Positions 395 through 50,367 of a stretch of 64,000 bases of DNA are shown one piece after another. Source of the stretch: Patescibacteria group bacterium. Lineage in GTDB: Bacteria > Patescibacteriota > Patescibacteriia > UM-FILTER-42-10. The notes below the pieces were generated by a model, which worked only from the letters and a program-made list of their open reading frames with translations, was not told the origin of the DNA and searched no databases. The position numbers were made by a program, and so were the translations under genes. Each line of letters starts with the position of its first letter. Position 1 is the stretch's first letter. The stretch is taken from positions 11,858 through 75,857 of the forward strand of contig JBAYKW010000002.1 of assembly GCA_041664365.1 (NCBI GenBank), read 5' to 3'.

Positions 395-440
395 CCGCCA
401 ATACATCTTTTATGGATTGAGGCGGTTTTTTTATTCCATT
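395..440 (+). terminator. rho-independent terminator
   Basis: CCGCC...GGCGG hairpin followed by TTTTTTTATT. The same GGCGGTTTTTTTATTC tail recurs after the next GC-rich gene at about 1760-1777. Confidence 0.5.
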
Positions 441-470
441 GACATTTATAAATATTCTGGTACAATCGTT
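439..470 (+). promoter_or_regulatory. sigma70-like promoter (TTGACA, 16-17 nt spacer, TACAAT) upstream of the glgC-like gene
   Basis: ccaTTGACAtttataaatattctggTACAATcg read directly. AT-rich, backbone-like signal driving a GC-rich gene. Confidence 0.4.
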
Positions 471-516
471 GCTCGCCCGTTCACACTCACTTTGTCCAAG
501 ACACGGAGGTAATTGT

Positions 517-1755
517 ATGTACCATATGGTCGACACCAGCAAAGTAATCGGCGTTATTCTTGCCGGTGGCGAAGGGGAGCGTGCCTATCCACTCACCCGT
601 TTCCGGGCGAAGCCAGCCATTCCGATCGGAGGTGTGTTCCGTCTCGCAGATGTGATGATCTCGAACTTCCTGAACAGCGACATCCGCAAGCTATACCTGA
701 TTGTGCAGAAGCGTCCGCACTCTCTGATGGTACACCTGGAGGGGTTCGTGGATGCCGTCGCTTCGATGCGTGGGCAGTTCATCCGGTGCCTGCCACCGCC
801 CAAGGAGCAGGATCGCTTCTACGCTTCGGACCTCGATTCCCTGCGTCATCATTCGCTGATCTGGCAGAATGATGATTCTGAGCTCGTGGTTCTGGCGATG
901 GGTGATCAGGTGGCGAAGATTGATCTGCGTCAAGCGATTATCCGTTTCAAAGAGACGGATGCTGATGTGGTGATGGTCTACAACCGGGTGACAACCCAGC
1001 AAGCAGCCGGGCGACTGGGCGTGATCACCTGTGATGGTGATCTGGTGACCGGTATGGAAGAGAAGCCGGAAGTTCCGGAAGAGATTCCGGGTGATCCGGG
1101 TTACTGCCGGGGCAACGTCGCGCTGTACGTCTTCAAGAAAGACCTTTTCACTGCAATGCTGACCAAGGCCAGTCGCCGGTGGGATCCCGCTCTGACGCTG
1201 AGCAAGATCGGTGTTCCCTGGTTGGTCCGGCATGCGCGAGTTGTGACCTACGATCTGGGTGACAACACCATCGCCGGGATGCATCCCTGCGAGCGCGCGA
1301 CGTTCTTCGAAGTCGGAACGCCGGACGACTACTTCGACACGCAGATGGCGTTTTGCATGCGCGAACCGCCGTTCAACTTTTACAACCCCGCGTGGCCGGT
1401 CTGGACCGCCCTGCGCTATCCGCTCATTCCGGCCAAAGTGGACCGGGTGAAGATGGAGGAAGTACTCCTCGCTCCGAACGTCGTCGTTCAGGATAACACG
1501 GAGATCACCCGCTCGGTTGTGAGCTACGGCGCGGTCGTCGGCAGTGGTAGTGTTCTGCAGAATGTCGTCATTCTGGACGGTGCGGTCGTCGGCAAGGGTT
1601 GTCAGATTACCAATACGGTAATCGAGAAGGGGATCGTCGTGCCGGATGGTACAATAATCGGTCCTGATCGGATCCCCGACGACAAGTCCATCGTTCTTTC
1701 ACAGAAGGGGAGGCTGTTCCTTCCCAAGTTCTTCGAGTTCAAGCGGCCGTCATAA
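517..1755 (+). CDS. glgC: glucose-1-phosphate adenylyltransferase-like sugar nucleotidyltransferase (GlgC family) with a C-terminal left-handed beta-helix
   Basis: N-terminus VIGVILAGGEGERAYPLTRFRAKPAIPIGGVFRLADVMISNFLNSDIRKLYLIVQKRPHSL matches the GlgC signature (ILAGGxGxRLxPLTxxRAKPAVPFGGxYRIIDFxLSNCxNSGI...VLTQYxSxSL). The C-terminal hexapeptide-repeat region (VVGSGSVLQNVVILDGAVVGKGCQI) fits the LbH domain. GGAGGT RBS 6 nt before the ATG at 517; the TTG at 439 is less likely as start. About 60% GC. Confidence 0.65.
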   Translation: MYHMVDTSKVIGVILAGGEGERAYPLTRFRAKPAIPIGGVFRLADVMISNFLNSDIRKLYLIVQKRPHSLMVHLEGFVDAVASMRGQFIRCLPPPKEQDRFYASDLDSLRHHSLIWQNDDSELVVLAMGDQVAKIDLRQAIIRFKETDADVVMVYNRVTTQQAAGRLGVITCDGDLVTGMEEKPEVPEEIPGDPGYCRGNVALYVFKKDLFTAMLTKASRRWDPALTLSKIGVPWLVRHARVVTYDLGDNTIAGMHPCERATFFEVGTPDDYFDTQMAFCMREPPFNFYNPAWPVWTALRYPLIPAKVDRVKMEEVLLAPNVVVQDNTEITRSVVSYGAVVGSGSVLQNVVILDGAVVGKGCQITNTVIEKGIVVPDGTIIGPDRIPDDKSIVLSQKGRLFLPKFFEFKRPS

Positions 1756-1851
1756 TCAAATGGCGGTTTTTTTATTCATAAAAAATTTTATTGTGGATAA
1801 CTGTAATATTTATTAATAATTGATGATAAAAAAACTGTAATCTTAGCAGGT

Positions 1852-1880
1852 TTGACCGGTTTTTTAAAATATGGTAATAT
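1852..1880 (+). promoter_or_regulatory. sigma70-like promoter (TTGACC, 17 nt spacer, TAATAT) reading into the C/T-rich tract
   Basis: tttgaccggttttttaaaatatggtaatat read directly, with consensus-like spacing. Confidence 0.4.
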
Positions 1881-2035
1881 TGAATCCAACAAGAGCTGAG
1901 TTAGTTATTTGAAAAGAGAATATCGGGAAAGGAAACCGTGGTCTTTGGGGAGCGATCTTTGCCTTCATTGATTTGAAGTCAAAGACTGCCCCCCAACCAC
2001 CCAACCTCCTTCATGAGTCGGAACATCACATGTTC

Positions 2036-2184
2036 CACACCCCCCGCCTTCCCCCCCCACCCCCCAACCCCGCCCTCCTCACCCCTCCTGCCTTCACTCT
2101 TCCTCTCTTCCTCCTACCCTCTCCTCGCTCCTTCTCTACTCATCCCACCATCCATTCTCTTTTCACCCATCTCATTTCAGATGA
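2036..2184 (+). repeat. C/T-rich, G-depleted low-complexity tract of about 150 nt (top strand is almost only C and T, with sparse A)
   Basis: ccccccccaccccccaaccccgccctcctcacccctcctgccttcactcttcctctcttcctcctaccctctcctcgctccttctctact... read directly. It contains many CCTCC/CCTCCT motifs. Confidence 0.85.
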
Positions 2185-2266
2185 AATAGCTATTTTTTTT
2201 CAGCTCTTTTGTCGTATATGGAGAAAACAATCATTTCAGTCAGTTTAAACCCTATTAGTGCAATGC

Positions 2267-2294
2267 TTGACATCTCCTATAAATATGATATATT
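2267..2294 (+). promoter_or_regulatory. sigma70-like promoter (TTGACA, 16 nt spacer, TATATT) for the trpR-like gene
   Basis: gcTTGACAtctcctataaatatgaTATATTgacc read directly. Confidence 0.4.
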
Positions 2295-2336
2295 GACCTG
2301 TGCGCTTTGCTTTAGCCTAATAAAGCATGAATTTAA

Positions 2337-2666
2337 ATGGAAATGAACAAAAAGAACAGCAAGAAAACTGAAGAATTATACCAGGCCATGCTTTCCTTAA
2401 AAAACACCAAGGAAGCCGTGGATTTTTTTCGTGATTTGCTGACGGAAAAAGAAATTATTGAATTAGGCAACCGCTGGCGTGCCGCTCGGATGCTCAATCA
2501 GAATATTCCATACAGCAAGATCATTGAAGATACCGGACTGAGCTCAACTACAATTGCCCGGACTTCAAAATGGTTGAAAAAAAGCAAAGGTGGTTTTAGA
2601 CTTATTCTCCAAAGAATTAATACCCATCGACACAACTCTTCCGTTCCTGAGAAAGGGTTGTTTTGA
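2337..2666 (+). CDS. TrpR-like / YerC-YecD family small DNA-binding protein
   Basis: 109 aa. ELGNRWRAARMLNQNIPYSKIIEDTGLSSTTIARTSKWLK matches the Trp-repressor-like HTH fold of the YerC/YecD family. Backbone GC. Confidence 0.6.
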   Translation: MEMNKKNSKKTEELYQAMLSLKNTKEAVDFFRDLLTEKEIIELGNRWRAARMLNQNIPYSKIIEDTGLSSTTIARTSKWLKKSKGGFRLILQRINTHRHNSSVPEKGLF

Positions 2667-2687
2667 TATAGCAGAAAATATATAAAG

Positions 2688-2724
2688 CCAGCCCCTTCTC
2701 ACGGAGAGAAGGGGCTTTTGATTT
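2688..2724 (+). terminator. rho-independent terminator
   Basis: AGCCCCTTCTC-acgg-AGAGAAGGGGCT followed by TTTTGATTT. Confidence 0.6.
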
Positions 2725-2811
2725 ATCGAAAGCCTTCAGCTTGAGAGACTTTTGATTTCCCAAAAGTTAAAGCTTAAGCTGAATTGTTCATTCACAGTTC
2801 GGAGGTTTGTC

Positions 2812-3888
2812 ATGAAGACGTACCGACCCTGCGCCGGCGCGATTCCCGAGTCGATTGATACCCGCTACCAGGAGGCGCTGCAGACCAAAGGACTTCGGTA
2901 TGGCATTATCGAAGTCACCACCCGTTGTCAGTGTGCCTGTCCGGGGTGCTATATGGTGCGCCGCAATTTCTTGAACAAAAAGGAGATGTCCCTGTCAGAT
3001 GCAATCCGGATTCTGGATTTGTGCCGTGATTACCGCGGCGCGGAACTGGAAACGATGGACCTCTTAGGCGGGGAGCCGCTGTTGTGGCCGCACCTGCAGG
3101 AGTTCATTGAGGAGCTGCTGCGCCGCGGGATTCTGCCTTGGGTTTTCACCAACATGCTGGCGATCACGCCCGAGCTCGCGCGGTGGTTGCATGAGCACAA
3201 GGTGCATGTTACCGGCAAGCTGAACATCGATCCTTCCGATCCCGCGCAGTATCCGCTGCAGGCGGAGATGCTGGGTCGGGGGATGAATGTGGTGCGGCAA
3301 CTGCTTTCCGCGATCCGGATTTTTCAGGCGGCCGGGTATGAGGACCCACTGTTCCGTTTGCAGAACCTGATCCGCAAACAGAACCTGGAATTTGTGCCGG
3401 GTTACTACAGTTGGTGCCTTGCACAGAAGATCGGCACGGATCTGGAACTGATGGGTTCCGGCGAGCCGATCGGTCCTGACTACTGGCGGATTGCCCCTAA
3501 CCCTAAACAGCTGGCGGGTATGATCCGCAAGATCCAGGCGGTCCGCAAGGAATTCGGCCTGGCGGAAGCCGAGGTACTGATGCCGCACGTGTTCGGCTCC
3601 TGTCCTTTCTACGACAAGGGTCTTTACTTCGCGGCGGACGGGCACATCCGCGCCTGCTCCAACTCTACGGTCCAGCTTTCACAAACCGCCGATCCGGATC
3701 CGATCCGGAAAGCCTATGAGTCACCGCTGATCTGTAGCCGTCTAATGCTTTCGCAGAGTGCGGTTGGGGAACCCTGTGGCAGCTGCAGTAAGTGGGACAA
3801 GTGCCGTGGCGGATGCCGGGCGACGGTGGAAGGTACCGGCGATCCTTTCGGCGGGTACCCGCTATGCCCGGTGCCTTTTCTGGACTGA
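2812..3888 (+). CDS. radical SAM enzyme with a C-terminal SPASM domain (peptide- or protein-modifying maturase family)
   Basis: CX3CX2C cluster motif TTRCQCACPGCY near the N-terminus. C-terminal CGSCSKWDKCRGGC is a Cx2Cx5Cx3C SPASM signature, and there are additional upstream Cys. GGAGG RBS 7 nt before the ATG at 2812. About 60% GC. Confidence 0.7.
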   Translation: MKTYRPCAGAIPESIDTRYQEALQTKGLRYGIIEVTTRCQCACPGCYMVRRNFLNKKEMSLSDAIRILDLCRDYRGAELETMDLLGGEPLLWPHLQEFIEELLRRGILPWVFTNMLAITPELARWLHEHKVHVTGKLNIDPSDPAQYPLQAEMLGRGMNVVRQLLSAIRIFQAAGYEDPLFRLQNLIRKQNLEFVPGYYSWCLAQKIGTDLELMGSGEPIGPDYWRIAPNPKQLAGMIRKIQAVRKEFGLAEAEVLMPHVFGSCPFYDKGLYFAADGHIRACSNSTVQLSQTADPDPIRKAYESPLICSRLMLSQSAVGEPCGSCSKWDKCRGGCRATVEGTGDPFGGYPLCPVPFLD

Positions 3889-3959
3889 CCTTGTGACAAA
3901 AGGTTGGGGCGGAGATTAATTTCTTCGCTCCAACCGCTTTATTTTTTAAATTTAAAGAT

Positions 3960-4415
3960 ATGAGAAAAGATATTCTAAAAATTGCCAATATTAAATTCAA
4001 AGAACTGTCAAAAAAGTACGACGGATTTATCAATGTGGTTATTGATGATTGGCGGGGTTTTCGTTTTGTTTTTGACACGGAAGATGTCCGCAAATGTAAA
4101 AACGACTGCCAGAATTGCCCGTTATTTAAATTACTAAAAGATGAAAAATCAGGATTATTCTCCACAGGATTATACCGGGCAACTAAAGAAGATAAATTAC
4201 TTTTCGGTCCGCAAAATTTTTTAAACTGTAAAACCATTATGCAATATCAAACATGCTATTTGAATTTTTTACAGCAATGCCGGTCGGAGGCTGAAATTAA
4301 GCAGGAATTAGCATTGGTTAAATCAATGAAATTAATTTATTCCAAAGGAAATATTAAAAAAACGGAAGATTTGTTTAAAAAAGAAATATTGTCCAAATAT
4401 CTTGATTTTTTATAG
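3960..4415 (+). CDS. hypothetical 151-aa protein carrying a CX3CX2C motif (CKNDCQNC); possible truncated radical-SAM-like remnant
   Basis: Backbone-type, Lys-rich composition. The motif VRKCKNDCQNCPLF is read directly. Too short for a full radical SAM core. Confidence 0.4.
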   Translation: MRKDILKIANIKFKELSKKYDGFINVVIDDWRGFRFVFDTEDVRKCKNDCQNCPLFKLLKDEKSGLFSTGLYRATKEDKLLFGPQNFLNCKTIMQYQTCYLNFLQQCRSEAEIKQELALVKSMKLIYSKGNIKKTEDLFKKEILSKYLDFL

Positions 4416-4477
4416 GGTATTTGTTAAGGTAAATGACCGTTTTAGCTGTTCACTTTAGGCACGAGGAGGTATACATC

Positions 4478-5836
4478 GTGATCATCAAGCGTTACGCACT
4501 GCTTCCGATGCGAGAACTTTGGCTCCGGGAAGAGAGCAAGTTCGAGCACTGGCTGGATGTTGAGCTAGCGGTTCTGCGCGCACGCGAACATTTGGGGATG
4601 GCACCTAAAGGTGCGTATATGAGCGTCCTCAAGCATGCTGCGTTCACTGTGGACAGGATCGCGGAGATCGAGGCGGAAGTGGATCACGACCTGATCGCTT
4701 TCGTCACCAACGTCCGCGAGTCGCTCGAAGCGGCCGGTATCGGCCATTTGTGTTCGGAAATCCATAAGGAGATTACGAGCTACGACGTGGAGGATCCGGC
4801 GCTGATTCTGATGCTCCGCAAGGCGGTCCATCTGGACATCAACGCGCTGAGATCGCTGGAACAGTCCTTACGGAGGAAGGCGCAGGAACACCAGTGGACC
4901 TGGATGATCATGCGCACGCACGGACAGTTCGCCGAACCTTCCACCTTCGGCCATCTTCTGCTGGTGTTTGCCGAAGAAATCCGGCGATGCATCGTCAAGC
5001 TCGAGACTCCGATGAACACTGATCTGTCCGAGGGGAAGATCTCCGGCGCGGTCGGCAGTTTCGCCGGCATTAGGCCAGCCGTGGAGCAGATTGCGCTGGA
5101 AGTGCTGGGTTTGATGCCTGCCAAGGCGGAAACCCAGATCCTACAGCGTGACCGTCACGCTGCGCTACTCTGCACGTTGGCAGTCTGCGGAGGAGTGATC
5201 GAGCAGATCGCAAAGACCTTCTGGGTGATGATGCGCAGCGAGGTGCGCGAACTCCGTGAACCGCGCAAGCCGAAGCAGAAGGGTTCCTCGGCGATGCCGG
5301 GCAAGCGCAATCCGATCCTGACGGAACGGCTCATGGGCATGTCCCGTCTGCTCCGTGCGGATGCAATGTGTGCGCTGGAGAACATCGCCACTTTCGAGGG
5401 ACGGGAAATCTCCCAGTCCAGTGTGGAACGCCACATCTTCGCGCGGTCAACGACGCTCGTTCACTACATGGCCATTAAGCTGGCCGGAATGGTGGACAGT
5501 CTCGAAGTTTTTCCGGAGCAGATGCTTCATAACCTGAAGGAGGAGTCACTCGGAGTGTGGGCCGGACAGCGGGTCCGTCATGCACTGGAGGAGGCGGGGA
5601 CTCACCACGAAGTGGCCTACCGCTACATTCAGGCGTGTTCGTTCCAGGCCGAGGCCGAACGGACGCATCTGCGAGACGTACTGCGCAGAACGTTGATTTG
5701 GGATGTTGTGGAAGACAGCGATGACGATCGTAGCGCCGAGGATCGGCTGGGTCGGAATGGTCTCAGGGCATGCTTCGACCACGAAGCCTATGCCACGGCC
5801 GGCATCGAACACATCTTCTCCCGCCAGACGGCGTAG
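4478..5836 (+). CDS. purB: adenylosuccinate lyase-like enzyme (fumarate-lyase superfamily, PurB-type)
   Basis: N-terminus VIIKRYALLPMRELWLREESKFEHWLDVELAVLRA parallels the PurB N-terminus (MIERYxxPEMxxIW..E.KFxxWL.VE). Fumarate-lyase signature GSSAMPGKRNP. GAGGAGG RBS before the GTG at 4478; the ATG at 4433 is an alternative start. About 60% GC. Confidence 0.65.
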   Translation: MIIKRYALLPMRELWLREESKFEHWLDVELAVLRAREHLGMAPKGAYMSVLKHAAFTVDRIAEIEAEVDHDLIAFVTNVRESLEAAGIGHLCSEIHKEITSYDVEDPALILMLRKAVHLDINALRSLEQSLRRKAQEHQWTWMIMRTHGQFAEPSTFGHLLLVFAEEIRRCIVKLETPMNTDLSEGKISGAVGSFAGIRPAVEQIALEVLGLMPAKAETQILQRDRHAALLCTLAVCGGVIEQIAKTFWVMMRSEVRELREPRKPKQKGSSAMPGKRNPILTERLMGMSRLLRADAMCALENIATFEGREISQSSVERHIFARSTTLVHYMAIKLAGMVDSLEVFPEQMLHNLKEESLGVWAGQRVRHALEEAGTHHEVAYRYIQACSFQAEAERTHLRDVLRRTLIWDVVEDSDDDRSAEDRLGRNGLRACFDHEAYATAGIEHIFSRQTA

Positions 5837-5904
5837 TTTGCACATTTCTTGGGTTCCGGGATCTGATCACAGATCTTAATGGGCCCTTTTTTATTTGGTT
5901 GAGT

Positions 5905-5990
5905 TGAGGGGATAGGGTTTTCCGCCTGAGGCGGATCAGCCTTGGGCTGAAGGGGATAGGGGTTAGGGGATAGGGTTTGGAAACTAGCAA
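5905..5990 (+). repeat. G-rich telomere-like repeat block (GGGGATAGGG / TTAGGGG units) with an internal CCGCC-tga-GGCGG hairpin
   Basis: tgaggggatagggttttccgcctgaggcggatcagccttgggctgaaggggataggggttaggggatagggtttgg read directly. A related block lies at 30273-30317. Confidence 0.8.
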
Positions 5991-6189
5991 TTGGTAATCT
6001 CTAATTCTAAACTCTTTATTCTTAAAATAGGCTAAAGCTTTTTTCTACAACCAAACGTGTAACGTCGCTTATTTTCAGCCGATAAATATAAACGAGTATT
6101 GTATCGTTCCGTGTTTTATTTTATTAGGATTTTTTGGCTAATTATAAGTAGACTTTTTAATCTTCAAGAAAGGTGTATAATATAAATCC

Positions 6190-7707
6190 ATGAAAAAAAT
6201 TGTTTTCATTATTCTAATTTTAAATTTTCTGATTACACCGCTCTTAGCCAGTGCGGCTGATCCCTGGGTGGCGACCAATGACCGGATCGGACTGAATGTC
6301 CACTGGGCATTGGGTGGTTTTGGCAAGGATGATTTATACCAACTGCGTTTGCATCAGAGCAGAACAACCTGGGTGCGAGAGCATTTTTATACTGAAGTGT
6401 TTATGGGGGAAAATCCTGAGGCTTGGTTTGAGCGTTACGACCTAATTCTGGAAAAATATCATCGGGAAGGGATAAAAGTTCTGGGCATGCTGGCATACAA
6501 TGTTAAACACGGGGATTTTTACCAGCCCGACCTTGCAGTGTGGGAAGAATTTGTCCGGACAGTTGTGAACCGCTACAAAGACAGGGTAGATGCGTGGGAA
6601 ATCTGGAATGAACCAGATTCGCCGACTTACCTTACCCCGCATAACCCGGAAACCTACGGACCAATTTTAGAAACTGCTTATCGAACCATCAAAAATATTG
6701 ACACCGAAGAGTTAGTCTTGACCGGCGGTTTGAGTTGGTTCAACTGGTATTTTGCCGAAAGACTTTTTAAAGATTATGGAGACTACTTTGATCGTTTAGC
6801 AGTTCATGGCTATTACTGCGAAAACCGGGATAATTCGAAAATGATGTCCGATCTGGCAGCGCTCAGAAGCGTGGTGGGTAAATACCGGCCGGGTGAGCAG
6901 ATTTGGATTACTGAGCTTGGCTGTTCCACCGGATCAATCGGAATCACTGAACAGGATCAGGTTGAATATTTGGATAATGCCACTAAAGAATTATTAGAAA
7001 CCACTTTTGTTGATAAAATTTTTCTTTATAATATCCGTAACCGGGAAATTGGTGATTTATATGAAGACAGCTTCGGACTTTTAGGTTTGGATATGCAGCC
7101 GAGGCTTGCCTGGTCGTGGTATCGCTCGCTTCCTTTCGGCCCGTATGATCAGAAAAGGATCTCTTTCAAACGGGAACAGAAGCGCGCTACCGAATTAAAA
7201 ACTGTTTTGGAAAAATTTTTTGGTAAAGATAAAATTCCGGTTACACAAGAAAACTGGAACAAGTTGGTTAATGCACATATTTATGGCGGTTATCCGGTGA
7301 TTGCCATAGTCCAGTCATTGCGTTTTGGTGGAAAAACGGTTCATCCGGAAATAAGTTATGACGATTGGAAAAAAAGTAAAACTTATAAAAAATATATCAA
7401 AAAGGATTTAGTGAACGGACGATTTGTCTTTGCATATGGTATGGCACGATTGCCAATCGAAACCGAACAGCAGAAGGCAACAGAATTGAAACAAAAACTT
7501 CAGACTCAATTTGGTTTGGAGAATTTAAGAATTAATGACGCGAACTGGGTAAAACTGTTTAACGCTTATGCTTACGGCGGGTATCCGGTGGAAGCAATCG
7601 CGCGTGCAGTGATTTATGGCGGTAAGACAGTGCACACAACTATTCCATGGAAATTCTGGAAAGAACGGTCTGAGTATTTGGAATATATGCAAAAACCGGT
7701 AAAATAA
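6190..7707 (+). CDS. secreted clan GH-A glycoside hydrolase-like protein with two tandem C-terminal repeats of about 100 aa
   Basis: Signal peptide MKKIVFIILILNFLITPLLASAA. WEIWNEPD (acid/base Glu) and WITELGCS (nucleophile Glu) motifs fit GH5/GH39-type enzymes. Repeated TELK..F.G..KIPVTQENWNKLVNAHIYGGYPV modules at the C-terminus. Confidence 0.55.
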   Translation: MKKIVFIILILNFLITPLLASAADPWVATNDRIGLNVHWALGGFGKDDLYQLRLHQSRTTWVREHFYTEVFMGENPEAWFERYDLILEKYHREGIKVLGMLAYNVKHGDFYQPDLAVWEEFVRTVVNRYKDRVDAWEIWNEPDSPTYLTPHNPETYGPILETAYRTIKNIDTEELVLTGGLSWFNWYFAERLFKDYGDYFDRLAVHGYYCENRDNSKMMSDLAALRSVVGKYRPGEQIWITELGCSTGSIGITEQDQVEYLDNATKELLETTFVDKIFLYNIRNREIGDLYEDSFGLLGLDMQPRLAWSWYRSLPFGPYDQKRISFKREQKRATELKTVLEKFFGKDKIPVTQENWNKLVNAHIYGGYPVIAIVQSLRFGGKTVHPEISYDDWKKSKTYKKYIKKDLVNGRFVFAYGMARLPIETEQQKATELKQKLQTQFGLENLRINDANWVKLFNAYAYGGYPVEAIARAVIYGGKTVHTTIPWKFWKERSEYLEYMQKPVK

Positions 7708-7720
7708 CGCAATAAAAAAA

Positions 7721-7741
7721 GGGGGTTTTTAAACTACCCCC
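7721..7741. terminator. hairpin terminator candidate (GGGGGT...ACCCCC), with a T-run on the minus-strand side
   Basis: aaaaaaagggggtttttaaactaccccc. On the minus strand the hairpin is followed by TTTTTTT, so it terminates the 7734..8060 minus gene and may act bidirectionally. Confidence 0.45.
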
Positions 7742-8060
7742 GTGTGCTTTTCCCGTTCCAGTCACGCTGCCATTCGTGGCGCTTGTCTTCCGGAATGTCA
7801 TCCGGCGGTGTGATGATTTCCAGCTGTTCCACCGGGTGGTGCAGGAAGGTGTCGTGGCCATCCGCAATGATGTGGCAGAGATGCTTGGTGGACCCGGCAC
7901 AGCCGAGGTCAAACAGCCTGCCGTCAAGCAGACGGACCATATGACGCGTCGAACCGCATCCTTCATGATCCCAAACACCGGGATTCCTCGGAACGATCGC
8001 ATTCAGCGGACTTCCGGGTTTGATCAGAATCCCGCAGACTTTGATTTTCAACTGAGACAT
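7734..8060 (-). CDS. GC-rich small hypothetical protein (about 108 aa) with an internal duplicated GCGSTRH / GCAGSTKH motif
   Basis: GGGAGGG RBS before the ATG (MSQLKIKV...). About 60% GC inside an AT-rich context. No family assigned. Confidence 0.45.
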   Translation of the reverse strand: MSQLKIKVCGILIKPGSPLNAIVPRNPGVWDHEGCGSTRHMVRLLDGRLFDLGCAGSTKHLCHIIADGHDTFLHHPVEQLEIITPPDDIPEDKRHEWQRDWNGKSTRG

Positions 8061-8127
8061 AATTTCCCTCCCCTCAGAGCCAAGGTACAAGGTTGCCAGT
8101 CTGTAGTATATTTATAATAGATATTTT

Positions 8128-8166
8128 GTCAACCCCGTTAGAGTCAATAACTCTAACGGGGTCAAT
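8128..8166. promoter_or_regulatory. palindromic intergenic element CCCCGTTAGAG-N7-CTCTAACGGGG (copy 1 of 3), upstream of the ispH promoter
   Basis: ttgtcaaccccgttagagtcaataactctaacggggtcaa. Near-identical copies at 36366-36403 and 49710-49745. A TTGTTT-17-TATAAT promoter follows at about 8178-8206. Confidence 0.6.
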
Positions 8167-8236
8167 ATGCGGAACCTTGTTTTTATAGGCATAATTGGTT
8201 ATAATACATAATGAAATAAAGGAATTTAGATACATT

Positions 8237-9172
8237 ATGAAAGTATTTATTGCCAGGCCAAGAGGATTTTGCGCGGGTGTAGCGCGGGCAGTGGAAGTAG
8301 TGGAATTAGCCCTAGAAACATTCGGCCCACCAATTTATGTCCGGCATGCTATTGTGCACAACCAGCATGTTGTGAATGACCTCGAAAAGAAAGGGGCCAT
8401 TTTTGTTGAAACGCTTTCAGAAATTCCAAGAGGCAGTAGGCTAGTATTCAGTGCGCATGGAGTATCCCCGCAGGTTCGGGCAGGGGCAAAAAAAAGAGAG
8501 CTTGATGTTATTGACGCAACCTGTCCCTTGGTAACGAAAGTTCATCTGGAGGCGATAAGGTTTGCCAAAGAAAACTACTCAATTGTTTTGATCGGTCATA
8601 AGGGGCATGTAGAATTAATCGGGACAGCCGGTGAAGCACCCGATAATATCTATATAGTTGAAACGGAAAAAGATATAAATGAATTAATAATTCCGGATGA
8701 ATCCAAAGTTGCTGTTTTAACCCAGACAACACTGAGTGTAAATGATACGAAAGGATTACTCGATATTTTAAAGAAAAAGTATCCAAGCTTGAAAGAACCG
8801 CCAAGGCAGGATATTTGTTATGCGACTACTAACCGACAAGCAGCAGTAAAAAATATTGCTAAGTATTGCGATGTAGTATACGTGATCGGCGATCCGGAAA
8901 GTTCAAATTCGAACCGACTGCGCGAGGCAGCAGAACAAACCAATATCCCGGCCTATTTAATCCAAAGCAGTTCTGATATAAAACCTGAACAGATAAGTGG
9001 TGTTAATGCGATTGGTGTTACTGCCGGTGCATCTGCTCCGGAACATCTGATTGAAGAAGTTATCGCATATCTGAAAAGTCACGGTGCTGATGATGTACAG
9101 GAAGTGGAAGCGGTCAAAGAAAATATGAAATTTCCGCTACCCCGCGAACTAAGTTCCAAGCTTAAAAATTAA
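8237..9172 (+). CDS. ispH: 4-hydroxy-3-methylbut-2-enyl diphosphate reductase
   Basis: MKVFIARPRGFCAGVARAVEVVELALE is the canonical IspH/LytB N-terminus with the conserved Cys. 311 aa. Confidence 0.8.
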   Translation: MKVFIARPRGFCAGVARAVEVVELALETFGPPIYVRHAIVHNQHVVNDLEKKGAIFVETLSEIPRGSRLVFSAHGVSPQVRAGAKKRELDVIDATCPLVTKVHLEAIRFAKENYSIVLIGHKGHVELIGTAGEAPDNIYIVETEKDINELIIPDESKVAVLTQTTLSVNDTKGLLDILKKKYPSLKEPPRQDICYATTNRQAAVKNIAKYCDVVYVIGDPESSNSNRLREAAEQTNIPAYLIQSSSDIKPEQISGVNAIGVTAGASAPEHLIEEVIAYLKSHGADDVQEVEAVKENMKFPLPRELSSKLKN

Positions 9173-9181
9173 TATACAACC

Positions 9182-10111
9182 ATGATTTATGATTTGATAA
9201 TAATTGGCGCATCAGCTGCTGGCATATCTGCCGGTATTTATTCCGCCAGAAGAAACCTGAATTTTTTGATAATTTCCAAGGATATTGGCGGAGAAGTGGC
9301 GAGGTCCGGTGAGGTTTGGAATTATCCAGGTTATCCGCAGACAGACGGAGTAGCTTTAAGCGAAAAATTTAAGGAGCATATCCTACTAAATAATATTACA
9401 CCGGAAACAGTGGTTACGGTTAAGGGTGTCAGAAAAGAGGATGGTAAATTTTATGTTGATGCGAGCAAGAACGGTTCAGATATTACATATGAAACAAAAA
9501 GCGTGATCGTGGCAACCGGCGTGGAACCACGGCATTTGGGAATCCCCGGTGAAGAAGATTTCAGAGGCAAGGGAGTAACCTATTGCACAACCTGTGACGG
9601 TCCGTTATTTCGCAATAAGGTTGTCGCGACAATTGGCGGTGGTAATTCCGCCCTGGAATCCGCGTTGATGCTTTCTGAAATCGCAACCAAAGTTTATCTG
9701 GTGAATCGTAATGAAGCAATGTCGGGTGAAGGCGTGTTGATTGATAAAGTAATGGCTGCCAAAAATATTGAACTGATTACCAACGCGGAAACAACAGAAA
9801 TAATCGGCGAGCAAATAGTTAAAACGTTGAAATATAAAGACAGAAAAACGGATGAGGAAAAAGAATTGGCTGTCCAGGGAATATTTGTTCACATTGGGAA
9901 CATCCCGAATTCCGGCATGATTGATATTGTAGAAAAAAATAAATTCGGGGAAATAATGGTTGACCGATTGGGCAAAACAAATGTTGCCGGAATATTTGCT
10001 GCGGGAGACGTCACAGATATACCATACAAACAAATTGCCATCGCGACCGGAATGGGCGTCGTTGCCTCCCTTTCGGTTGTTGATTATTTGAATAAATTAA
10101 AAAATGATTAA
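9182..10111 (+). CDS. trxB: thioredoxin reductase-like FAD/NAD(P)-dependent disulfide oxidoreductase
   Basis: GxGxxG FAD site (IIGASAAGISAGIY), redox-active CTTCDGPLF, and a second NAD(P) site (IGGGNSALESA). Confidence 0.75.
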   Translation: MIYDLIIIGASAAGISAGIYSARRNLNFLIISKDIGGEVARSGEVWNYPGYPQTDGVALSEKFKEHILLNNITPETVVTVKGVRKEDGKFYVDASKNGSDITYETKSVIVATGVEPRHLGIPGEEDFRGKGVTYCTTCDGPLFRNKVVATIGGGNSALESALMLSEIATKVYLVNRNEAMSGEGVLIDKVMAAKNIELITNAETTEIIGEQIVKTLKYKDRKTDEEKELAVQGIFVHIGNIPNSGMIDIVEKNKFGEIMVDRLGKTNVAGIFAAGDVTDIPYKQIAIATGMGVVASLSVVDYLNKLKND

Positions 10112-14725: not shown

Positions 14726-15244
14726 ATGTACTTACCGACTCAAAAGCAGTGTTTTGATCTTTGGGATAAATATCAAATGCCGGAACATATTAAACGGCAT
14801 TCAGCAACGGTAACTCAGGTTGCGGATACTGTTACTCTATATCTTGAAAGTCAGGGAGTTAAAATCGATAAAATTTTAGTTAATAGAGGTGCGCTGTTAC
14901 ATGATATTGCAAAAATAATAGCTGTGAATGAAAATCGTGAACGTGAACATGCAGAGATGGGTTCGGAAATTGCGGTCAGGGAAAATCTCGGTAAGGAGAT
15001 CTCGGAAATAATTCGCAAGCACTATATGAATACATTTAATGATCAATGCACTTTGGAAGAATTAATCGTCAATTATGCCGACAAAAGAGTTGCACAGAAT
15101 AAAATTGTTTCTTTGGCGGAAAGATTTGATTACATTTGTAAAAGATATCCTCGAGCTATTCCCGACATTATCAATAATCAGCAGAAATATTTTGAATTTG
15201 AAAAAGAATATCAGATTGACCAACTGGATTTGATGGAAAAATAA
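14726..15244 (+). CDS. HD-domain phosphohydrolase (YqeK-like) embedded in the suf operon
   Basis: HD motif ALLHDIAK and further His/Asp residues ([15 protein letters not shown]). Start abuts the sufC stop (TAAATG) and the stop overlaps the sufB start (TAATG). Confidence 0.55.
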
Positions 15245-24366: not shown

Positions 24367-24406
24367 AGTTTTGAATATATCATCACATTAAATCTCTGTC
24401 AAATGG

Positions 24407-24436
24407 GGTAGCTTGGGTGACGTCACCCAAGCTACC
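24407..24436. promoter_or_regulatory. perfect 30-bp palindrome (15-bp arms) in the divergent intergenic region between the cop regulator and the purA-like gene
   Basis: GGTAGCTTGGGTGAC|GTCACCCAAGCTACC read directly. A TTGACT-17-TAAGAT promoter for the purA-like gene follows at about 24445-24473. Confidence 0.6.
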
Positions 24437-24517
24437 CACTGCGTTTGACTCAATTCAGATGTTTTTGTAAGATGATAGACCGTTTTAGTGAGGATTTTCG
24501 GACCAGGGGAGGGTTAT

Positions 24518-25867
24518 ATGCCTATCGACACGATTTGTGGTCTCCAACGGGGAGACGAAGGCAAGGGCGCGATCGTTGATCGCAAACTGGCCTCAGGTAA
24601 GTACACCTGGAATGTCCGTTTCCAGGGAGGTGCCAACGCTGGCCACACTGTGAAGGCTGGTGGAAAGAAGTTGATTCTGCACCAAATCCCTTCTGGCGTC
24701 ATGCACGAGCGGGTCAGGCTGGGCCTCGGTCAGGGCATGATTATCGATCCGTTCGGTCTCCGCGATGAAGTCGAACAGCTTCGGGTTATGGACATCGATG
24801 CGACGGCGCGACTGTGTGTTTCTTCCGGTGCCAAGATCGTCTGTCCGTGGGACAAGCTCCTGGACGGCGCGATCGATCGCGTGCGAGCCAAGGCTATGGG
24901 CATGCAGGTCGCGGAGGGCGGCGGCGTCGGTACTACCAACCGCGGGATCGGTCCCGGCTATGCTAATGCGGTGTCACGGGACGGCATCACGGTGGCGCAG
25001 CTGGTCCGGCCGAACGTGCTCTTCAATCGGATCAAAGTCGTGGTCCCGGTGATCAACTGCATGATCCGCGGTGTGCGCCAGGAGCTGGATTTATCGGAAG
25101 AGCAGCTACCGGAGTACACTGTTTCCGGTGCGTTTGAACAGCTCGCTCCGATCGGCGAATGGATGTCGCTGATTGCGTATCCGCTGCATGAACTGCTGCG
25201 GGTTGCACTTATGGAAGGTGAATTCTTACTCGCAGAGGGCGGACAGGGTTATTTCCTGTCCAACGACTGCACTGTGAGCTATCCCAGCTGCACTTCCTCG
25301 ATCACGACGGCCAACGCCGTTTTCTCGGGGCTCGGACTCGAACTGCGAAGAAGCTGGATCGGTAGCACGATCGGCGTGGTCAAGGCGTACCAGACGGCAG
25401 TGGGTAATCATCCGATGCCCACCTACATCGGCAACGAGTACCAGGAGCGTATCCAGCGGATCGGTGGCGAAATCGGCGCGTCGACCGGCCGGATACGTGA
25501 CTGCTGCTGGCTGAACGGTTTGGAGCTTCGCGAGGCTGCTCAGTTTTGCGACGTGATCTACGTCACCAAGCTGGATGTGCTGTCCGGGATTCCGCTGATT
25601 CCGATCGCAACCGCCCTGCATCCTGACAACCATGCTCCGAATCATCCAGTGCTGACCGATCTCCCGCAAACCTGGGAGGAGTACATGCTCTGCCAGCCGA
25701 TCTACGGCATCAACGTGACCGGCTGGAACGAGGACATCTCCGGCATTCGCAGGATTGCCGACTTGCCGAGCAGTGCGCAGGAATACTTGGCTACGATTGC
25801 CAAGATTGCGTCCAGGATGGTCATCTGCGTCGGTGTCGGTCCTGAACGCGAGCAGTTCTGCGTTTAG
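24518..25867 (+). CDS. purA: adenylosuccinate synthetase family protein (PurA-like; substrate specificity not resolved)
   Basis: GLQRGDEGKGAIVD (P-loop, catalytic Asp), RFQGGANAGHTV (catalytic His retained, first His replaced by Ala), GTTNRGIGPGY, GASTGRIRDCCWLN, TKLDVL. GGGGAGGG RBS before the ATG at 24518. About 62% GC. Confidence 0.7.
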   Translation: MPIDTICGLQRGDEGKGAIVDRKLASGKYTWNVRFQGGANAGHTVKAGGKKLILHQIPSGVMHERVRLGLGQGMIIDPFGLRDEVEQLRVMDIDATARLCVSSGAKIVCPWDKLLDGAIDRVRAKAMGMQVAEGGGVGTTNRGIGPGYANAVSRDGITVAQLVRPNVLFNRIKVVVPVINCMIRGVRQELDLSEEQLPEYTVSGAFEQLAPIGEWMSLIAYPLHELLRVALMEGEFLLAEGGQGYFLSNDCTVSYPSCTSSITTANAVFSGLGLELRRSWIGSTIGVVKAYQTAVGNHPMPTYIGNEYQERIQRIGGEIGASTGRIRDCCWLNGLELREAAQFCDVIYVTKLDVLSGIPLIPIATALHPDNHAPNHPVLTDLPQTWEEYMLCQPIYGINVTGWNEDISGIRRIADLPSSAQEYLATIAKIASRMVICVGVGPEREQFCV

Positions 25868-30317: not shown

Positions 30318-30329
30318 TTGAAAACATAA

Positions 30330-30527
30330 TATTAAACTGGAATAGTACCAGGGAACACCGGTGTAAATCCGGGGCAGTCCCGCTACTGTAATCTCAGGGC
30401 ATTTTTTTAGAAAATGTACTGGGAAAGTCAGAATACTGGTATATTCAAAATTAATTCTTTCTCCGCGGATAGGGAAAGAGGTAAAACTGCCGATTTTGCC
30501 TTCCTGTCCTAGGAAGGTTTTTTAATA
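30330..30527 (+). ncRNA. cobalamin (AdoCbl) riboswitch with a terminator-type expression platform
   Basis: cAGGGAAcaccGGTGtAAATCCggggcagtcccGCTACTGTAA matches the conserved core and B12-box of the cobalamin riboswitch consensus. Downstream hairpin GCCTTCCTGTCCTAGGAAGG plus TTTTTT lies 30 nt before the 30557 gene. Confidence 0.7.
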
Positions 30528-31716: not shown

Positions 31717-31853
31717 TCAGTATAGAATGACCTTTGAAAAACAGGTTTTGTTACCTGTGTCATAACACAACTAGAAAACACTTGGCAGATAGACGAAGAA
31801 ACGGGGAAATCAATTCTGGTTTTCCCAACGGGACACGAGTGAAGGAGACAGTC

Positions 31854-33647
31854 ATGAATTCGTTCAACAAGTTCGGCCAAGCTCGGTGGTATGCGATGGT
31901 CTTCATCGGCGTGATTACCGCTGCGCAGGTGGTTAGGGGCAACTGGTTCGGTTTCGTGGAAGGTCTGTTGTCGATGGGAATCATGGCCGTCATGATGTGG
32001 GTGTGGCTGCCGATCTTCATCCGACAGCTGGCCGACCAGTACCTTTTCTTCTTGCGGGCGAAGGAAATGCGCGCCTACATGATTGAGAAGGACGGAAAGT
32101 TGGTCCGGCTCATCATCGCGGTACTGGCAAAGGACCGTCCGCGGTTCGAGGTGCTCAAGATGGAACAAGAAGCAAGGGGAATCCGGGTTGACCTGGTTGA
32201 CCCTTCGAGCTCCTTGTATTACATCGGAGTGCCTTGGAAGTTCAAGGCCAAGTTTTGGTTTGAGTATCCGGCGGACGAAACGTCTCCCGAATTGCATCCC
32301 CAGTACTCGATGATTCTTTCTGAAAGGACCATCGATTACCAAGCGCCCGAAGTGCCCACGGCGGACTTCATTGAGATCACTGCCAAGCTGGTGATCTCAT
32401 TGATTGTGGTGAATCCGCTCAAAGCAGTTTATGGCGTTAACCATTACATGGAGGCAGTGATCTTCCTGATCAACTCCAGGTGGCGTAGGGTTGCCACTAC
32501 TCTGCACTTCTTCTACTACGGAGAGGATGCAGAGGCGCCAAAGGATCTCAATACGGTGCTCTCCAGACTGGAGACACTAAAGAGAGATCCGGAAATCTAT
32601 CAGAAGGCTCACGGAGCACTGCTGGTGGATCTCTGGCTGGCCGGGCGCTGTCAGAAGTACAAGGTCGCTGTCGGGGAAGATGGCAATCCCAAAGCAATTG
32701 CTGACGGGAGGCCGGAACCTCGATACTGGAACGTCCAGGACTCCAAGGTAATGGATGGCACGGAGACTTTCGGAGGAAATGTCTACAACGTCTATGGAGA
32801 CTTTGAAGGCAGATTCTTCTATGTTCGCGAAGAAGCGGATGAAAGCCTCGTGCTGATGTGTGGTAAGGAAGGAGAATCCCCGATTTCATTCGTCGAAAGC
32901 GACCGTAGCAAGGTCGTGGTCAGACCGGAACAGCGCGTGCTGTTTCTGTTTACCAAGTCGGGAGATTCTTGGGATGGGGTCCGTGCCTACTTCAAGTACG
33001 GGATTCCCGCCGACAAGCCGGCTCGTCGGCTAGTCATACACTTCGGTGTCTTCCCGAAAGACGTCGAAATACAAGACATCGGCACCCAGCGCAATATCAA
33101 GGAGGCCCTGGAAAAGCCCGCTATTGCCATTGCCAATGCTCTTGCTGCCAGGCAAGAAGCAGAAGGAATGAAAGCGGTCAAGGTTCTTGAAGCAGAAGGG
33201 GAAAAGCAGGCCAAGATCCTTCAGGGTGAAGGTGAAGAGAAGCGTTTGTCCTCTGTGGGCGCAGGCGAGGGCACAGCGAAGCGCCTGGTTGGTGAAGGAG
33301 AAGGCGCGGCAGTGCTTGCGGTCCACAAGGGACACGCCGATGGTTTCGCCGCTCAAATGGCGGCGCTTGGAATCAAACCGGGCGAGGCGGCTGCCTTGTC
33401 TATGTTGAGTGCCGAAGCAGTGCGTCAAATGGCAATTTCTGCTAAGCAGCTCACTGTTATAGGGGCTGAAGGCATTAACAACCTATTTGGCGTTGTGCCG
33501 GCTCTTGCGCAGCTCTGGAACAGAGAAGGGAACACTCCCTCTGAAGCTGATGTGATCAAAGTATTGTCCGGCCTTAGCGTGGCTGAACGACAGTCCGTGT
33601 TCGATGCGTTGCCCAGAACCAATAGTGGTGAGGACAGCGTTTCCTAA
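31854..33647 (+). CDS. SPFH/band-7 domain protein with a flotillin-type C-terminal coiled/EA-repeat region and a central insertion of about 200 aa
   Basis: N-terminal TM helices. Band-7 block DFIEITAKLVISLIVVNPLKAVYGVNHYMEAVIFLINSRWRRVATT fits the SPFH pattern D..ka.y.v.ny..av..l..t.lR. The C-terminus (KEALEKPAIAIANALAARQEAEGMKAVKVLEAEGEKQAKIL...AAALSMLSAEAVRQMAISAKQLTVIGAEG) resembles flotillin/YqiK tails. AAGGAG RBS. About 60% GC. Confidence 0.6.
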   Translation: MNSFNKFGQARWYAMVFIGVITAAQVVRGNWFGFVEGLLSMGIMAVMMWVWLPIFIRQLADQYLFFLRAKEMRAYMIEKDGKLVRLIIAVLAKDRPRFEVLKMEQEARGIRVDLVDPSSSLYYIGVPWKFKAKFWFEYPADETSPELHPQYSMILSERTIDYQAPEVPTADFIEITAKLVISLIVVNPLKAVYGVNHYMEAVIFLINSRWRRVATTLHFFYYGEDAEAPKDLNTVLSRLETLKRDPEIYQKAHGALLVDLWLAGRCQKYKVAVGEDGNPKAIADGRPEPRYWNVQDSKVMDGTETFGGNVYNVYGDFEGRFFYVREEADESLVLMCGKEGESPISFVESDRSKVVVRPEQRVLFLFTKSGDSWDGVRAYFKYGIPADKPARRLVIHFGVFPKDVEIQDIGTQRNIKEALEKPAIAIANALAARQEAEGMKAVKVLEAEGEKQAKILQGEGEEKRLSSVGAGEGTAKRLVGEGEGAAVLAVHKGHADGFAAQMAALGIKPGEAAALSMLSAEAVRQMAISAKQLTVIGAEGINNLFGVVPALAQLWNREGNTPSEADVIKVLSGLSVAERQSVFDALPRTNSGEDSVS

Positions 33648-33664: not shown

Positions 33665-34768
33665 GTGGACATTCTGCTTCTCATAGTTCTTCTGCTGGCA
33701 TTTGGTGCGTATTCCCTGAATTCCTGGTTCAGGAAACGCAACGGCACCAGCACTCAACGCAGAGTAACGAGTAGTTCGAGACTGCTCTTCCCAACCATCG
33801 CGCTCATCGTGATCGCGGTGATCGGACACTACGTCTTTCACTGGAAGGTGGGTAGCGCCATCTTCCTCATCATCCTGACTGCTGCGGTGGTCGGTGGTAT
33901 CTGGTGGTTCCGGCGCAAACCGGCCTACTCCCGTTTCGGTGGTAAGCCGTTCGGTACGTTCGTCGGTAACAATATCAAACTCATCGGATGGCTCGTGTTC
34001 CACGTGGCCTTCTGGTGCGTGGTCGCAAACATGGACGGCAACTGGGACTACGTCAAGGAGTGGTGGTGGGGTAAGTACAGCTTGTTTCTGTACCCCATGC
34101 ACTTGATCTACATCACGCGCGGCAGCTTTCCGGACGTGGTCACAGGGAAGTACACTTTCCCGAACAGGATCACGAAGTGGGCATTCACATTCCTGTTCAT
34201 TCTGATGCTGTATGCACCGTTCTGCCACGTTACTCAGCGCGAGTCGATCCTGAGCCGATACGCGGGCTTCAACGAGTCCGGTTCGGCGCACTACAACATT
34301 CCGGGTCGGCAGTCGCCTGACTCGGACGAACTTCAGCGCGGGCAGTTCAATATCAACGTCACGCCGGAAGGACGTGACGCGAACGGTCTCGTGAAGAAGA
34401 TGAGGGTTGGCACTTTGCCGGCCGGTACCACGTGGATCCAGACCTGGAATATCAGTGGTCGGGTCTACACCAAATATCTGATCTATCAGTGGATCGGCGA
34501 CCGGCTGAAAGTCTACGACAAGATCCTCGTTGACAACAATCAGTTGGCTTCGCCGGACACCGATGGCGATGGCTTCTTGACCGTCAGCCAGAGTCCGTTG
34601 ATGCTCATGCTGGGTGCCGACGGGAAGACGGGGTGGAAGATCGTCAATTCCGAGCGGTACGAATTCGCACCCCTGGCTCAGGATACCGAGGTATTTGTCC
34701 TGATCTACTCCGATCAGGAGAGACCCGGTACTGGAGGCGTCAGCTTCCATCTGCGGTCAGGAATCTGA
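33665..34768 (+). CDS. GC-rich polytopic membrane protein (about 6 TM) with a C-terminal soluble beta-rich domain; operon partner of the SPFH protein
   Basis: Hydrophobic helices (LLLIVLLLAFGAY, LLFPTIALIVIAVIGHYVF, AIFLIILTAAVVGGIWWF, IGWLVFHVAFWCVV...). Begins 17 bp after the upstream stop. A strong terminator follows. Confidence 0.5.
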   Translation: MDILLLIVLLLAFGAYSLNSWFRKRNGTSTQRRVTSSSRLLFPTIALIVIAVIGHYVFHWKVGSAIFLIILTAAVVGGIWWFRRKPAYSRFGGKPFGTFVGNNIKLIGWLVFHVAFWCVVANMDGNWDYVKEWWWGKYSLFLYPMHLIYITRGSFPDVVTGKYTFPNRITKWAFTFLFILMLYAPFCHVTQRESILSRYAGFNESGSAHYNIPGRQSPDSDELQRGQFNINVTPEGRDANGLVKKMRVGTLPAGTTWIQTWNISGRVYTKYLIYQWIGDRLKVYDKILVDNNQLASPDTDGDGFLTVSQSPLMLMLGADGKTGWKIVNSERYEFAPLAQDTEVFVLIYSDQERPGTGGVSFHLRSGI

Positions 34769-50292: not shown

Positions 50293-50367
50293 GTCCCGTT
50301 AGCTTAATGGCAGAGCAGCTGACATCTCAATCAGCCGATCGGGGTTCGAGTCCTCGACGGGGCACCA
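50293..50367 (+). tRNA. tRNA-like gene with an 8-nt anticodon loop (CATCTCAA); anticodon unresolved (CTC or TCT possible)
   Basis: GTCCCGT-TA-GCTT.AATGGCA.GAGC-A-GCTGA.CATCTCAA.TCAGC-CGAT-CGGGG.TTCGAGT.CCTCG-ACGGGGC-A-CCA. The cloverleaf is otherwise good. Confidence 0.5.

Follow-up and report, generated by a model that had tools for sequence, protein, structure and literature searches.

Does a purA-like gene that shares a 64-kb stretch of DNA with a purB-like gene encode an ordinary adenylosuccinate synthetase (AdSS) or an enzyme with a different purine substrate, and where did the two genes come from? The stretch, called the window below, covers 64,000 nucleotides of contig JBAYKW010000002.1 from a Patescibacteria group bacterium. 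The initial annotation had left two options, a plain module converting inosine monophosphate (IMP) to adenosine monophosphate (AMP) or a pair of altered specificity with phage PurZ as precedent, and had singled out a GGANAGHT variant of a conserved PurA motif. The plain option is favoured by the present analysis: the binding residues are kept with the exception of Ser414, the residue states typical of PurZ are absent, and the protein scores 313–325 bits against PurA models versus 68 bits against the PurZ model. We estimate at about 80% the probability that the pair is an ordinary IMP-to-AMP module in a small-genome, Kerfeldbacteria-like Patescibacterium, its PurA being a rare and divergent member of a known family. 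This estimate builds on family membership, conservation of functional residues, fold, synteny, co-divergence with neighbouring genes and base composition, all of which were determined directly.

The purA-like protein belongs to the long type of AdSS. Its match to PF00709 (325 bits) spans profile positions 2–415 of 416, the top matches among solved structures are the E. coli and Yersinia enzymes (E values of 1e-61 to 5e-63), and a relative of 78% identity (P0001) carries the name adenylosuccinate synthetase at both NCBI and JGI. The AlphaFold model has a predicted local distance difference score (pLDDT) of 92.5 and a predicted template modelling score (pTM) of 0.91, and its template modelling (TM) scores are 0.89–0.94 to long-type AdSS structures (4M9D, 1CG3 and 1IWE) versus 0.49–0.62 to PurZ and PurZ0. 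The open reading frame (ORF) is intact and begins with the ATG at 24518, preceded by the ribosome-binding site GGGGAGGG at 24506–24513. Since this site stands before the ATG and the N-terminus MPIDT.. agrees with that of homologs, there is no need to invoke the longer GTG start at 24488. Like the bacterial long-type enzymes of E. coli (1ADE, 1CG0) and B. anthracis (4M9D), the protein has the full-length domain and fold, the P-loop, the G-x-NAGHT and TKLD motifs, the IMP contacts and the aspartate loop. It differs from them in sharing at most 40% identity, in having replaced W11, H110, D139 and other residues, and in carrying an insertion of about five residues with a GGG before the GTT motif.

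The active site was compared in an alignment of the authentic E. coli PurA (from L008), 109 ordinary PurAs, 8–12 members of the clade formed by the window protein and its close relatives, and PurZ of phage phiVC8 (L007). The catalytic and ligand positions D13, K16, Q34, N38, G40, H41, T42, T128, T129, R131, R143, Q224, T239, V273, T300, T301, R303, R305, K331, D333 and R419 (E. coli numbering, as throughout) are kept in the window and in essentially all of the clade. The exceptions are T300, which is Ser in the window, and R131 and Q224, each of which differs in one clade member. Alignment with the E. coli enzyme thus finds conserved the IMP contacts N38, T128, T129, R143', Q224, T239 and V273, together with the 2'-OH/aspartate contact R303 and with T301 and R305.

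The supposed deviation in the GGANAGHT motif disappears when more sequences are counted. The motif Ala aligns with E. coli His37, and the catalytic His41 is the second His of the motif, which the purA-like protein retains. The GDEGKG P-loop and the His41 of G-x-N-A-G-H-T show no variation among 13 clade members or among the ordinary PurAs examined (109 and 42 in two alignments). A word-indexed search returned Ala at position 37 in 99 of 109 matches; such a search favours 'GGANA' words, and the count was therefore redone on an exhaustive HMMER search, free of a word index, that covered 1.84 billion representatives. In this search the position was Ala in 46 relatives, Asn in 43, Pro in 18, His in 12, Asp in 8, Ser in 7 and Gly in 6, and clade members have A, R or N. 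The statement that GGHNAGHT is otherwise invariant was thus wrong, the His of E. coli being a minority state of a variable position. With Ala as the commonest state in the exhaustive count, the change from His37 to Ala was rejected as a functional deviation, and annotation of such proteins loses a false lead.

The partner protein is a PurB, a member of the class II lyases, and not a 3-carboxymuconate cycloisomerase, the alternative that had been proposed for checking. Its TIGR00928 score lies above the cutoff of 326.2, whereas the pcaB models for the cycloisomerase give 113–115 bits, far below their cutoffs. It matches the adenylosuccinate lyase of T. maritima (1C3U) with 266 bits, and alignment to that structure finds the catalytic motifs HDL, H..ITS.D and RTHGQFAEP kept, along with the signature loop GSSAMPGKRNP (SSxMPxKxN). 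The start codon is GTG, at which a 100%-identical database protein (P0121) also begins. As in the reference PurBs, the catalytic His residues are present; its nearest relatives are PurBs of Patescibacteria, hundreds of which share 50–57% identity with it. It is unlike the reference in the weak conservation of its ADSL_C C-terminal region (20 bits) and in a content of guanine plus cytosine (GC) that is higher than in its flanking genes, even in a relative of 55% GC. The initial annotation had called both enzymes divergent. That description suits PurA, an isolated clade with no more than 40% identity to anything else and scores below the equivalog cutoffs, but not PurB, with its TIGR00928 score and its many Patescibacterial relatives.

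In the proposed scheme PurA would convert IMP, L-aspartate and GTP into adenylosuccinate, GDP and Pi, and PurB would then split adenylosuccinate into AMP and fumarate, the substrates being those expected from family and residues. IMP would be supplied by salvage or by a partial de novo pathway. PurA would be a fast-evolving, lineage-restricted enzyme with a canonical active site, altered in second-shell residues and in the loop before the IMP-binding Thr-Thr motif; some of the altered residues presumably lie at the dimer interface. Both genes would have occupied unchanged chromosomal positions from a time before the split of the sampled relatives, each under purifying selection and with its own AT-rich, native-looking promoter.

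The competing possibility raised by the initial annotation is that a PurZ-like enzyme joins dGMP (or GMP) to aspartate and that PurB then gives 2-aminoadenine nucleotides. PurZ (phiVC8, 6FM1; S-2L, 7ODX) is of the same superfamily as the window protein, likewise brings together a phosphoryl-activated 6-oxopurine and aspartate, and also leaves the second step to PurB; a general precedent for PurA homologs changing substrate thus exists (PMC8342488). In PurZ, Asp13 is replaced by Ser, adjoining the 2-amino group, and Asp333 by Gln or Asn, suited to adenine nucleotides; position 303, where Arg contacts the 2'-OH and aspartate in PurA, is a displaced Arg or a Lys with loss of the 2'-OH contact, and the architecture is of the short, archaeal type (PMC8342488). 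At the discriminating positions phiVC8 PurZ has S13, K303, F331 and N333, the last two going with ATP use, whereas the window has D, R, K and D. Alignment against E. coli PurA and phage PurZ, as had been suggested, thus puts every residue that discriminates IMP from dGMP or contacts the 2'-OH in the PurA state, the guanine motif TKLD included. The window protein has 449 residues versus 343 in phiVC8 PurZ (about 345 in the short type) and scores 68.5 bits against the NCBIfam PurZ model NF038379, whose cutoff is 300. A tblastn search of 50,697 phage records returned only ordinary PurAs, at 35% identity or less, and no close phage homolog. PurZ genes lie in a datZ/mazZ/dpoZ neighbourhood; none of these three genes is encoded in the 64-kb window, which holds housekeeping genes only. 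An HD-domain protein at 14726–15244 could have spoken for a DatZ; this candidate was rejected, being a generic HDIG protein within the suf operon that is conserved in relatives. Residues, model scores, architecture, fold and gene context together rule out altered specificity of the PurZ type; judged from these features a PurZ-like function appears essentially refuted, and we regard it as scarcely credible. Also weighed was a PurA of canonical chemistry whose substrate range or regulation has shifted (for instance by accepting dIMP or a further 6-oxopurine nucleotide, by a change of oligomer or by a loss of feedback control). Several observations weigh against an ordinary enzyme, and some of them lend themselves to this explanation. 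Both NCBIfam PurA equivalog models are missed (NF002223, 313.2 bits against a cutoff of 402; TIGR00184, 259.1 bits against 395.55), a shortfall that is due to divergence and not to a missing feature. Ser414 is Gly in the window, the sole known catalytic or ligand residue that is not conserved. Twelve positions that are 91–100% conserved in the sampled ordinary PurAs carry changes fixed in the clade (W11R, H110D, D139N, K140A, R147T, D229S, V238C, R272A, G276H, G308C, D311N and Y347L), and the clade insertion, with an invariant GGG, lies directly before the IMP-binding (V/I)GTT motif. Such replacements and the insertion could alter kinetics, regulation or substrate range. We take D139, K140 and R147 to lie on the helix bearing R143, which completes the IMP site of the partner subunit; if this placement is right, the dimer interface is probably remodelled. 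The ratio of non-synonymous to synonymous substitution rates (dN/dS) against orthologs is 0.18 for purA-like and purB alike, which signifies purifying selection, though 3–6 times more relaxed than for the neighbouring ribonucleotide reductase (RNR) or SufS. A hint of dispensability comes from two of the four GTDB representatives of the clade, in which the gene has a single in-frame nonsense codon where relatives have Gln (TAA at 10028–10030 of L016, the window having CAA; TAG at codon 194 of L018). These two ORFs are otherwise intact and conserved, with a dN/dS of 0.10 between L016 and L001, and the codons could stem from recent inactivation, strain polymorphism or sequencing error. Finally, no source of IMP is visible within the 64-kb window; literature searches on purine salvage in bacteria of the candidate phyla radiation (CPR) and on residue roles in E. 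coli AdSS gave nothing usable. Set against a shifted enzyme are the direct ligand contacts of E. coli AdSS, kept in full but for Ser414, the occurrence of W11R, R272 loss and S414G in part in other, presumably ordinary, Patescibacteria PurAs, a co-conserved PurB without unusual features, and the lack of extra pathway genes beside either gene. A functional shift of this kind is quite unlikely in our judgement, and the ordinary IMP-to-AMP module is preferred.

The PurA clade is rare. Only about 12 relatives at 52–78% identity were found among 5.8 billion clustered proteins, the next being at 39% or less, and the exhaustive search, over 1.84 billion representatives, shows the clade as one 50%-identity cluster (P0003, 693 bits), followed by a match of 242 bits and 40% identity. 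It occurs in 4 of 185,579 GTDB species genomes, namely three metagenome-assembled genomes named 'Patescibacteria group bacterium' and Candidatus Kerfeldbacteria CG08. For the phylogeny that the initial annotation had called for, a neighbour-joining tree recovers the clade as monophyletic in 100 of 100 bootstraps and does not settle its sister group, Doudnabacteria taking that place in 17 of 100. Residues shared with other Patescibacteria PurAs (the Saccharibacteria type and Doudnabacteria) add to this. W11R and the loss of R272 are common to both of these groups and argue for a Patescibacterial ancestry of the purA-like gene. S414G is common in part, and the N-terminal 'MP(L/I)D..(G)LQRGDEGKG' is likewise shared; Gly at 414 is found in 5 of the 109 ordinary PurAs and in all Saccharibacteria-type PurAs. 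These other Patescibacteria proteins are unlike the window protein in their 30–36% identity to it and in keeping H110, D139/K140/R147, D229, G276, G308, D311 and Y347, and a common clade with them is not resolved by the tree. Annotation is affected as well: a rare, lineage-restricted PurA subfamily lies under automated thresholds, and as a consequence the IMP-to-AMP branch of these Patescibacteria may be annotated too rarely by pipelines.

The Saccharibacteria-type PurAs (matches in L019–L094) form a divergent group of their own in 95 of 100 bootstraps, with R11, H272, N34, S128 and G414, and with R131 usually replaced by S or A. Several of their contigs are labelled Dormibacterota, Verrucomicrobia or Chitinophagaceae and are probably mis-binned.

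As for the origin of the two genes, the initial annotation described them as lying in islands of about 60% GC within a genome of about 38% GC and as evidently acquired. The islands are real: purA-like has 59.0% GC and purB 59.2%, with GC at third codon positions (GC3) of 0.72 and 0.73. The background was set too low and is about 42–44%, native neighbours having 38–45% GC (about 42%) with a GC3 of about 0.35–0.50 (about 0.43) and the whole window 43.9%. GC1, GC2 and GC3 are all raised in both genes, the amino-acid composition is rich in Gly, Ala, Arg and Pro (GARP-rich), and the edges of the islands are sharp and fall at gene ends, GC dropping to 0.30–0.42 within 100–200 nt on either side of both genes. 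These are the features expected if both genes had been imported recently from a GC-rich organism outside Patescibacteria, and related genomes do acquire GC-rich genes, as seen in the benzoyl-CoA and purM-like island beside purA in L003. Gene order stands against such an import, orthologs being syntenic in at least five related genomes with PurA identities down to 57%. The purA-like gene lies just upstream of NrdR, class II RNR and CobO in the window, in L001 and L015 (78% identity) and in L012 (57%), and a Suf/Sod/AhpC block adjoins its other side in the window, L001 and L003. In L003 (70% identity) it follows Suf/Sod/AhpC and is parted from NrdR by an inserted island; in L013 (52% identity) the clade member adjoins PRPP synthetase. 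The purB slot (TrpR, radical SAM, orf151, purB, GH, LytB, thioredoxin-reductase-like) is the same in L009, L011 and L097, and the Kerfeldbacteria contig L095 shows partial synteny, where purB directly precedes LytB and the reductase. The purA-like gene and purB occur together on one contig, k141_469602, at a distance of about 15 kb.

Divergence tells the same story as gene order. Compared with the flanking genes, PurA and PurB have amino-acid identities to their orthologs that are in the same range or slightly lower, and third-base identity at conserved four-fold degenerate codons is 0.57 for PurA and 0.49–0.56 for its neighbours against L001, and 0.39 and 0.22–0.37, respectively, against L003. 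Because this identity equals that of the neighbours, purA and purB have co-diverged with their surroundings. Recent transfer was rejected on synteny and on a synonymous divergence equal to that of the neighbours. Around the purA-like gene no traces of mobile elements and no flanking direct repeats were found, and no tRNA gene lies closer than about 9 kb. Neither enzyme points to an outside donor: PurB nests among the Patescibacteria PurBs and is partly syntenic in a Kerfeldbacteria genome, and PurA has no outside donor clade, its R11 and R272 loss being those of Doudnabacteria and Saccharibacteria PurAs and Doudnabacteria its sister in just 17% of bootstraps. A recent import is therefore, in our estimation, very unlikely. 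What stands of the claim of acquisition is the foreign-looking composition; 'evidently' does not stand beside conserved position, co-divergence and Patescibacterial nearest relatives and shared residues. Conserved synteny together with co-divergence places any transfer before the sampled lineages, and the idea of an old acquisition, from no identifiable outside donor, appears partly supported by the foreign-looking composition.

The high GC of the two genes has persisted while their backgrounds drifted. In the L003/L011 genome the native four-fold GC is about 0.20 (about 0.5 in the window) and synonymous divergence is near saturation, yet purA there has 0.56 and purB 0.67. In distant members of the clade the offset of purA is smaller or nil (+0.15 in L012, none in L013), and in a Kerfeldbacteria contig of 55% GC the GC of purB exceeds that of its neighbours by about 0.10. 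A slowly ameliorating relic does not fit comfortably with this lasting GC-richness. The alternatives may be selection, biased gene conversion or repeated in-place replacement from GC-rich relatives; GC-rich Patescibacteria do exist (L095, L096). That the same individual genes keep a high GC at fixed loci, across genomes whose backgrounds have drifted widely, bears on gene transfer and on the evolution of base composition in reduced genomes. Two further propositions, a functional shift of the PurA clade (in oligomer, regulation or nucleotide range) and an active upkeep of the high GC of purA and purB, as opposed to a decaying relic, are unlikely in our view. If the second were true, either selection or biased gene conversion would be acting on these genes or alleles of GC-rich relatives would have replaced them in place repeatedly, an unusual regime in streamlined episymbiont genomes.

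The islands are not confined to the two purine genes (Table 1), and the compositional mosaic of the window is conserved in the related genomes L001, L009 and L011. A chimeric assembly was considered as the cause of the islands and rejected as unlikely: the ENA-deposited contig L097 is 100% identical to positions 1478–8836 of the window, and the same mosaic appears in several other assemblies.

Table 1. Positions of the two purine genes, of motifs within the purA-like gene, of upstream elements and of further compositional features of the window
Feature	Position	Strand	Basis or remark
purA-like CDS, 449 aa, divergent long-type adenylosuccinate synthetase	24518..25867	+	PF00709, 325 bits, full length
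P-loop GDEGKG, residues 12-17, with catalytic Asp13 and Lys16	24551..24568	+	Invariant in clade and ordinary PurA; PurZ has Ser at Asp13
GGANAGHT, residues 37-44; Ala corresponds to E. coli His37, equivalents of Asn38 and catalytic His41 kept	24626..24649	+	Alignment
Aspartate loop GASTGRIR, residues 320-327, corresponding to E. coli T300, T301, R303, R305	25475..25498	+	T301, R303, R305 invariant in clade
Guanine-specificity motif TKLD, residues 350-353, corresponding to E. coli K331 and D333	25565..25576	+	Conserved; PurZ has F and N there
purB CDS, 452 aa, adenylosuccinate lyase (class II lyase)	4478..5836	+	TIGR00928, 332.5 bits
AT-rich promoter-like site TTGACT-17-TAAGAT upstream of purA-like	24445..24473	+	Consensus scan
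Upstream element TAAGGTAAATGACCGTTTTA before purB	4425..4444	+	Resembles purA -10 region/leader 24468-24487, TAAGATGATAGACCGTTTTA
GlgC-like nucleotidyltransferase	439-1755		GC-rich gene-bounded island, 53-58% GC
Radical-SAM protein	2752-3888		GC-rich gene-bounded island, 53-58% GC
ORF of unknown function between radical-SAM gene and purB	3960-4415		30.5% GC
Band7-like protein	31734-33647		GC-rich gene-bounded island, 53-58% GC
Unknown ORF	33665-34768		GC-rich gene-bounded island, 53-58% GC

The promoter-like site upstream of the purA-like gene is conserved upstream of its orthologs in L001, L003, L015, L016 and L017. The sequence GACCGTTTTA has only two exact copies in the window, each beginning 40–43 nt before the start codon of purB or purA, and both copies lie within a stretch that is alike at 20 of 27 positions (TAAG.T.A..GACCGTTTTAG). 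This shared stretch may represent a common promoter or leader architecture or the site of a regulator. A regulatory box common to purA and purB is not claimed, since relatives conserve the shared exact 10-mer only in part. In the divergent intergenic region that separates purA from an ArsR/YHS regulator gene, positions 24406–24437 form a perfect 32-bp palindrome, GGGTAGCTTGGGTGAC|GTCACCCAAGCTACCC. L001 retains part of this palindrome; L003, which has no adjacent ArsR/Cu-ATPase operon, lacks it. As it is absent where the operon is absent, the palindrome was rejected as a purA element and assigned to that operon, for whose copper-ATPase genes it probably serves as an ArsR-family operator.

The GC-rich island directly downstream of the purA-like gene in L003 (11971–15392) consists of a purM-like gene (229 bits, cutoff 236), a 3-hydroxyacyl-CoA dehydrogenase and the 6-oxocyclohex-1-ene-1-carbonyl-CoA hydratase Oah (527 bits). 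Oah, an enzyme of the anaerobic benzoyl-CoA pathway, would not be expected in a Patescibacterium.

On the other side of NrdR, class II (B12-dependent) RNR and CobO, the window has an adenosylcobalamin (AdoCbl) riboswitch (57 bits) at 30324–30487, upstream of DUF4430 and DUF6580 genes, so that a cobalamin-centred nucleotide-reduction locus adjoins purA. A tRNA gene at 50293–50367, between tRNA-Glu and tRNA-Arg(tct), scores 52.6 bits against the Rfam tRNA model; ARAGORN leaves its identity undetermined and gives it a four-base anticodon, 'tctc'. The intergenic region between the GlgC-like and Trp-repressor-like genes contains, at about 1990–2170, a tract of about 180 nt that is nearly all C/T (CCCCCCAACCACCCAACCTCC...), with a GC skew reaching -0.78, and is accordingly G-rich on the minus strand.

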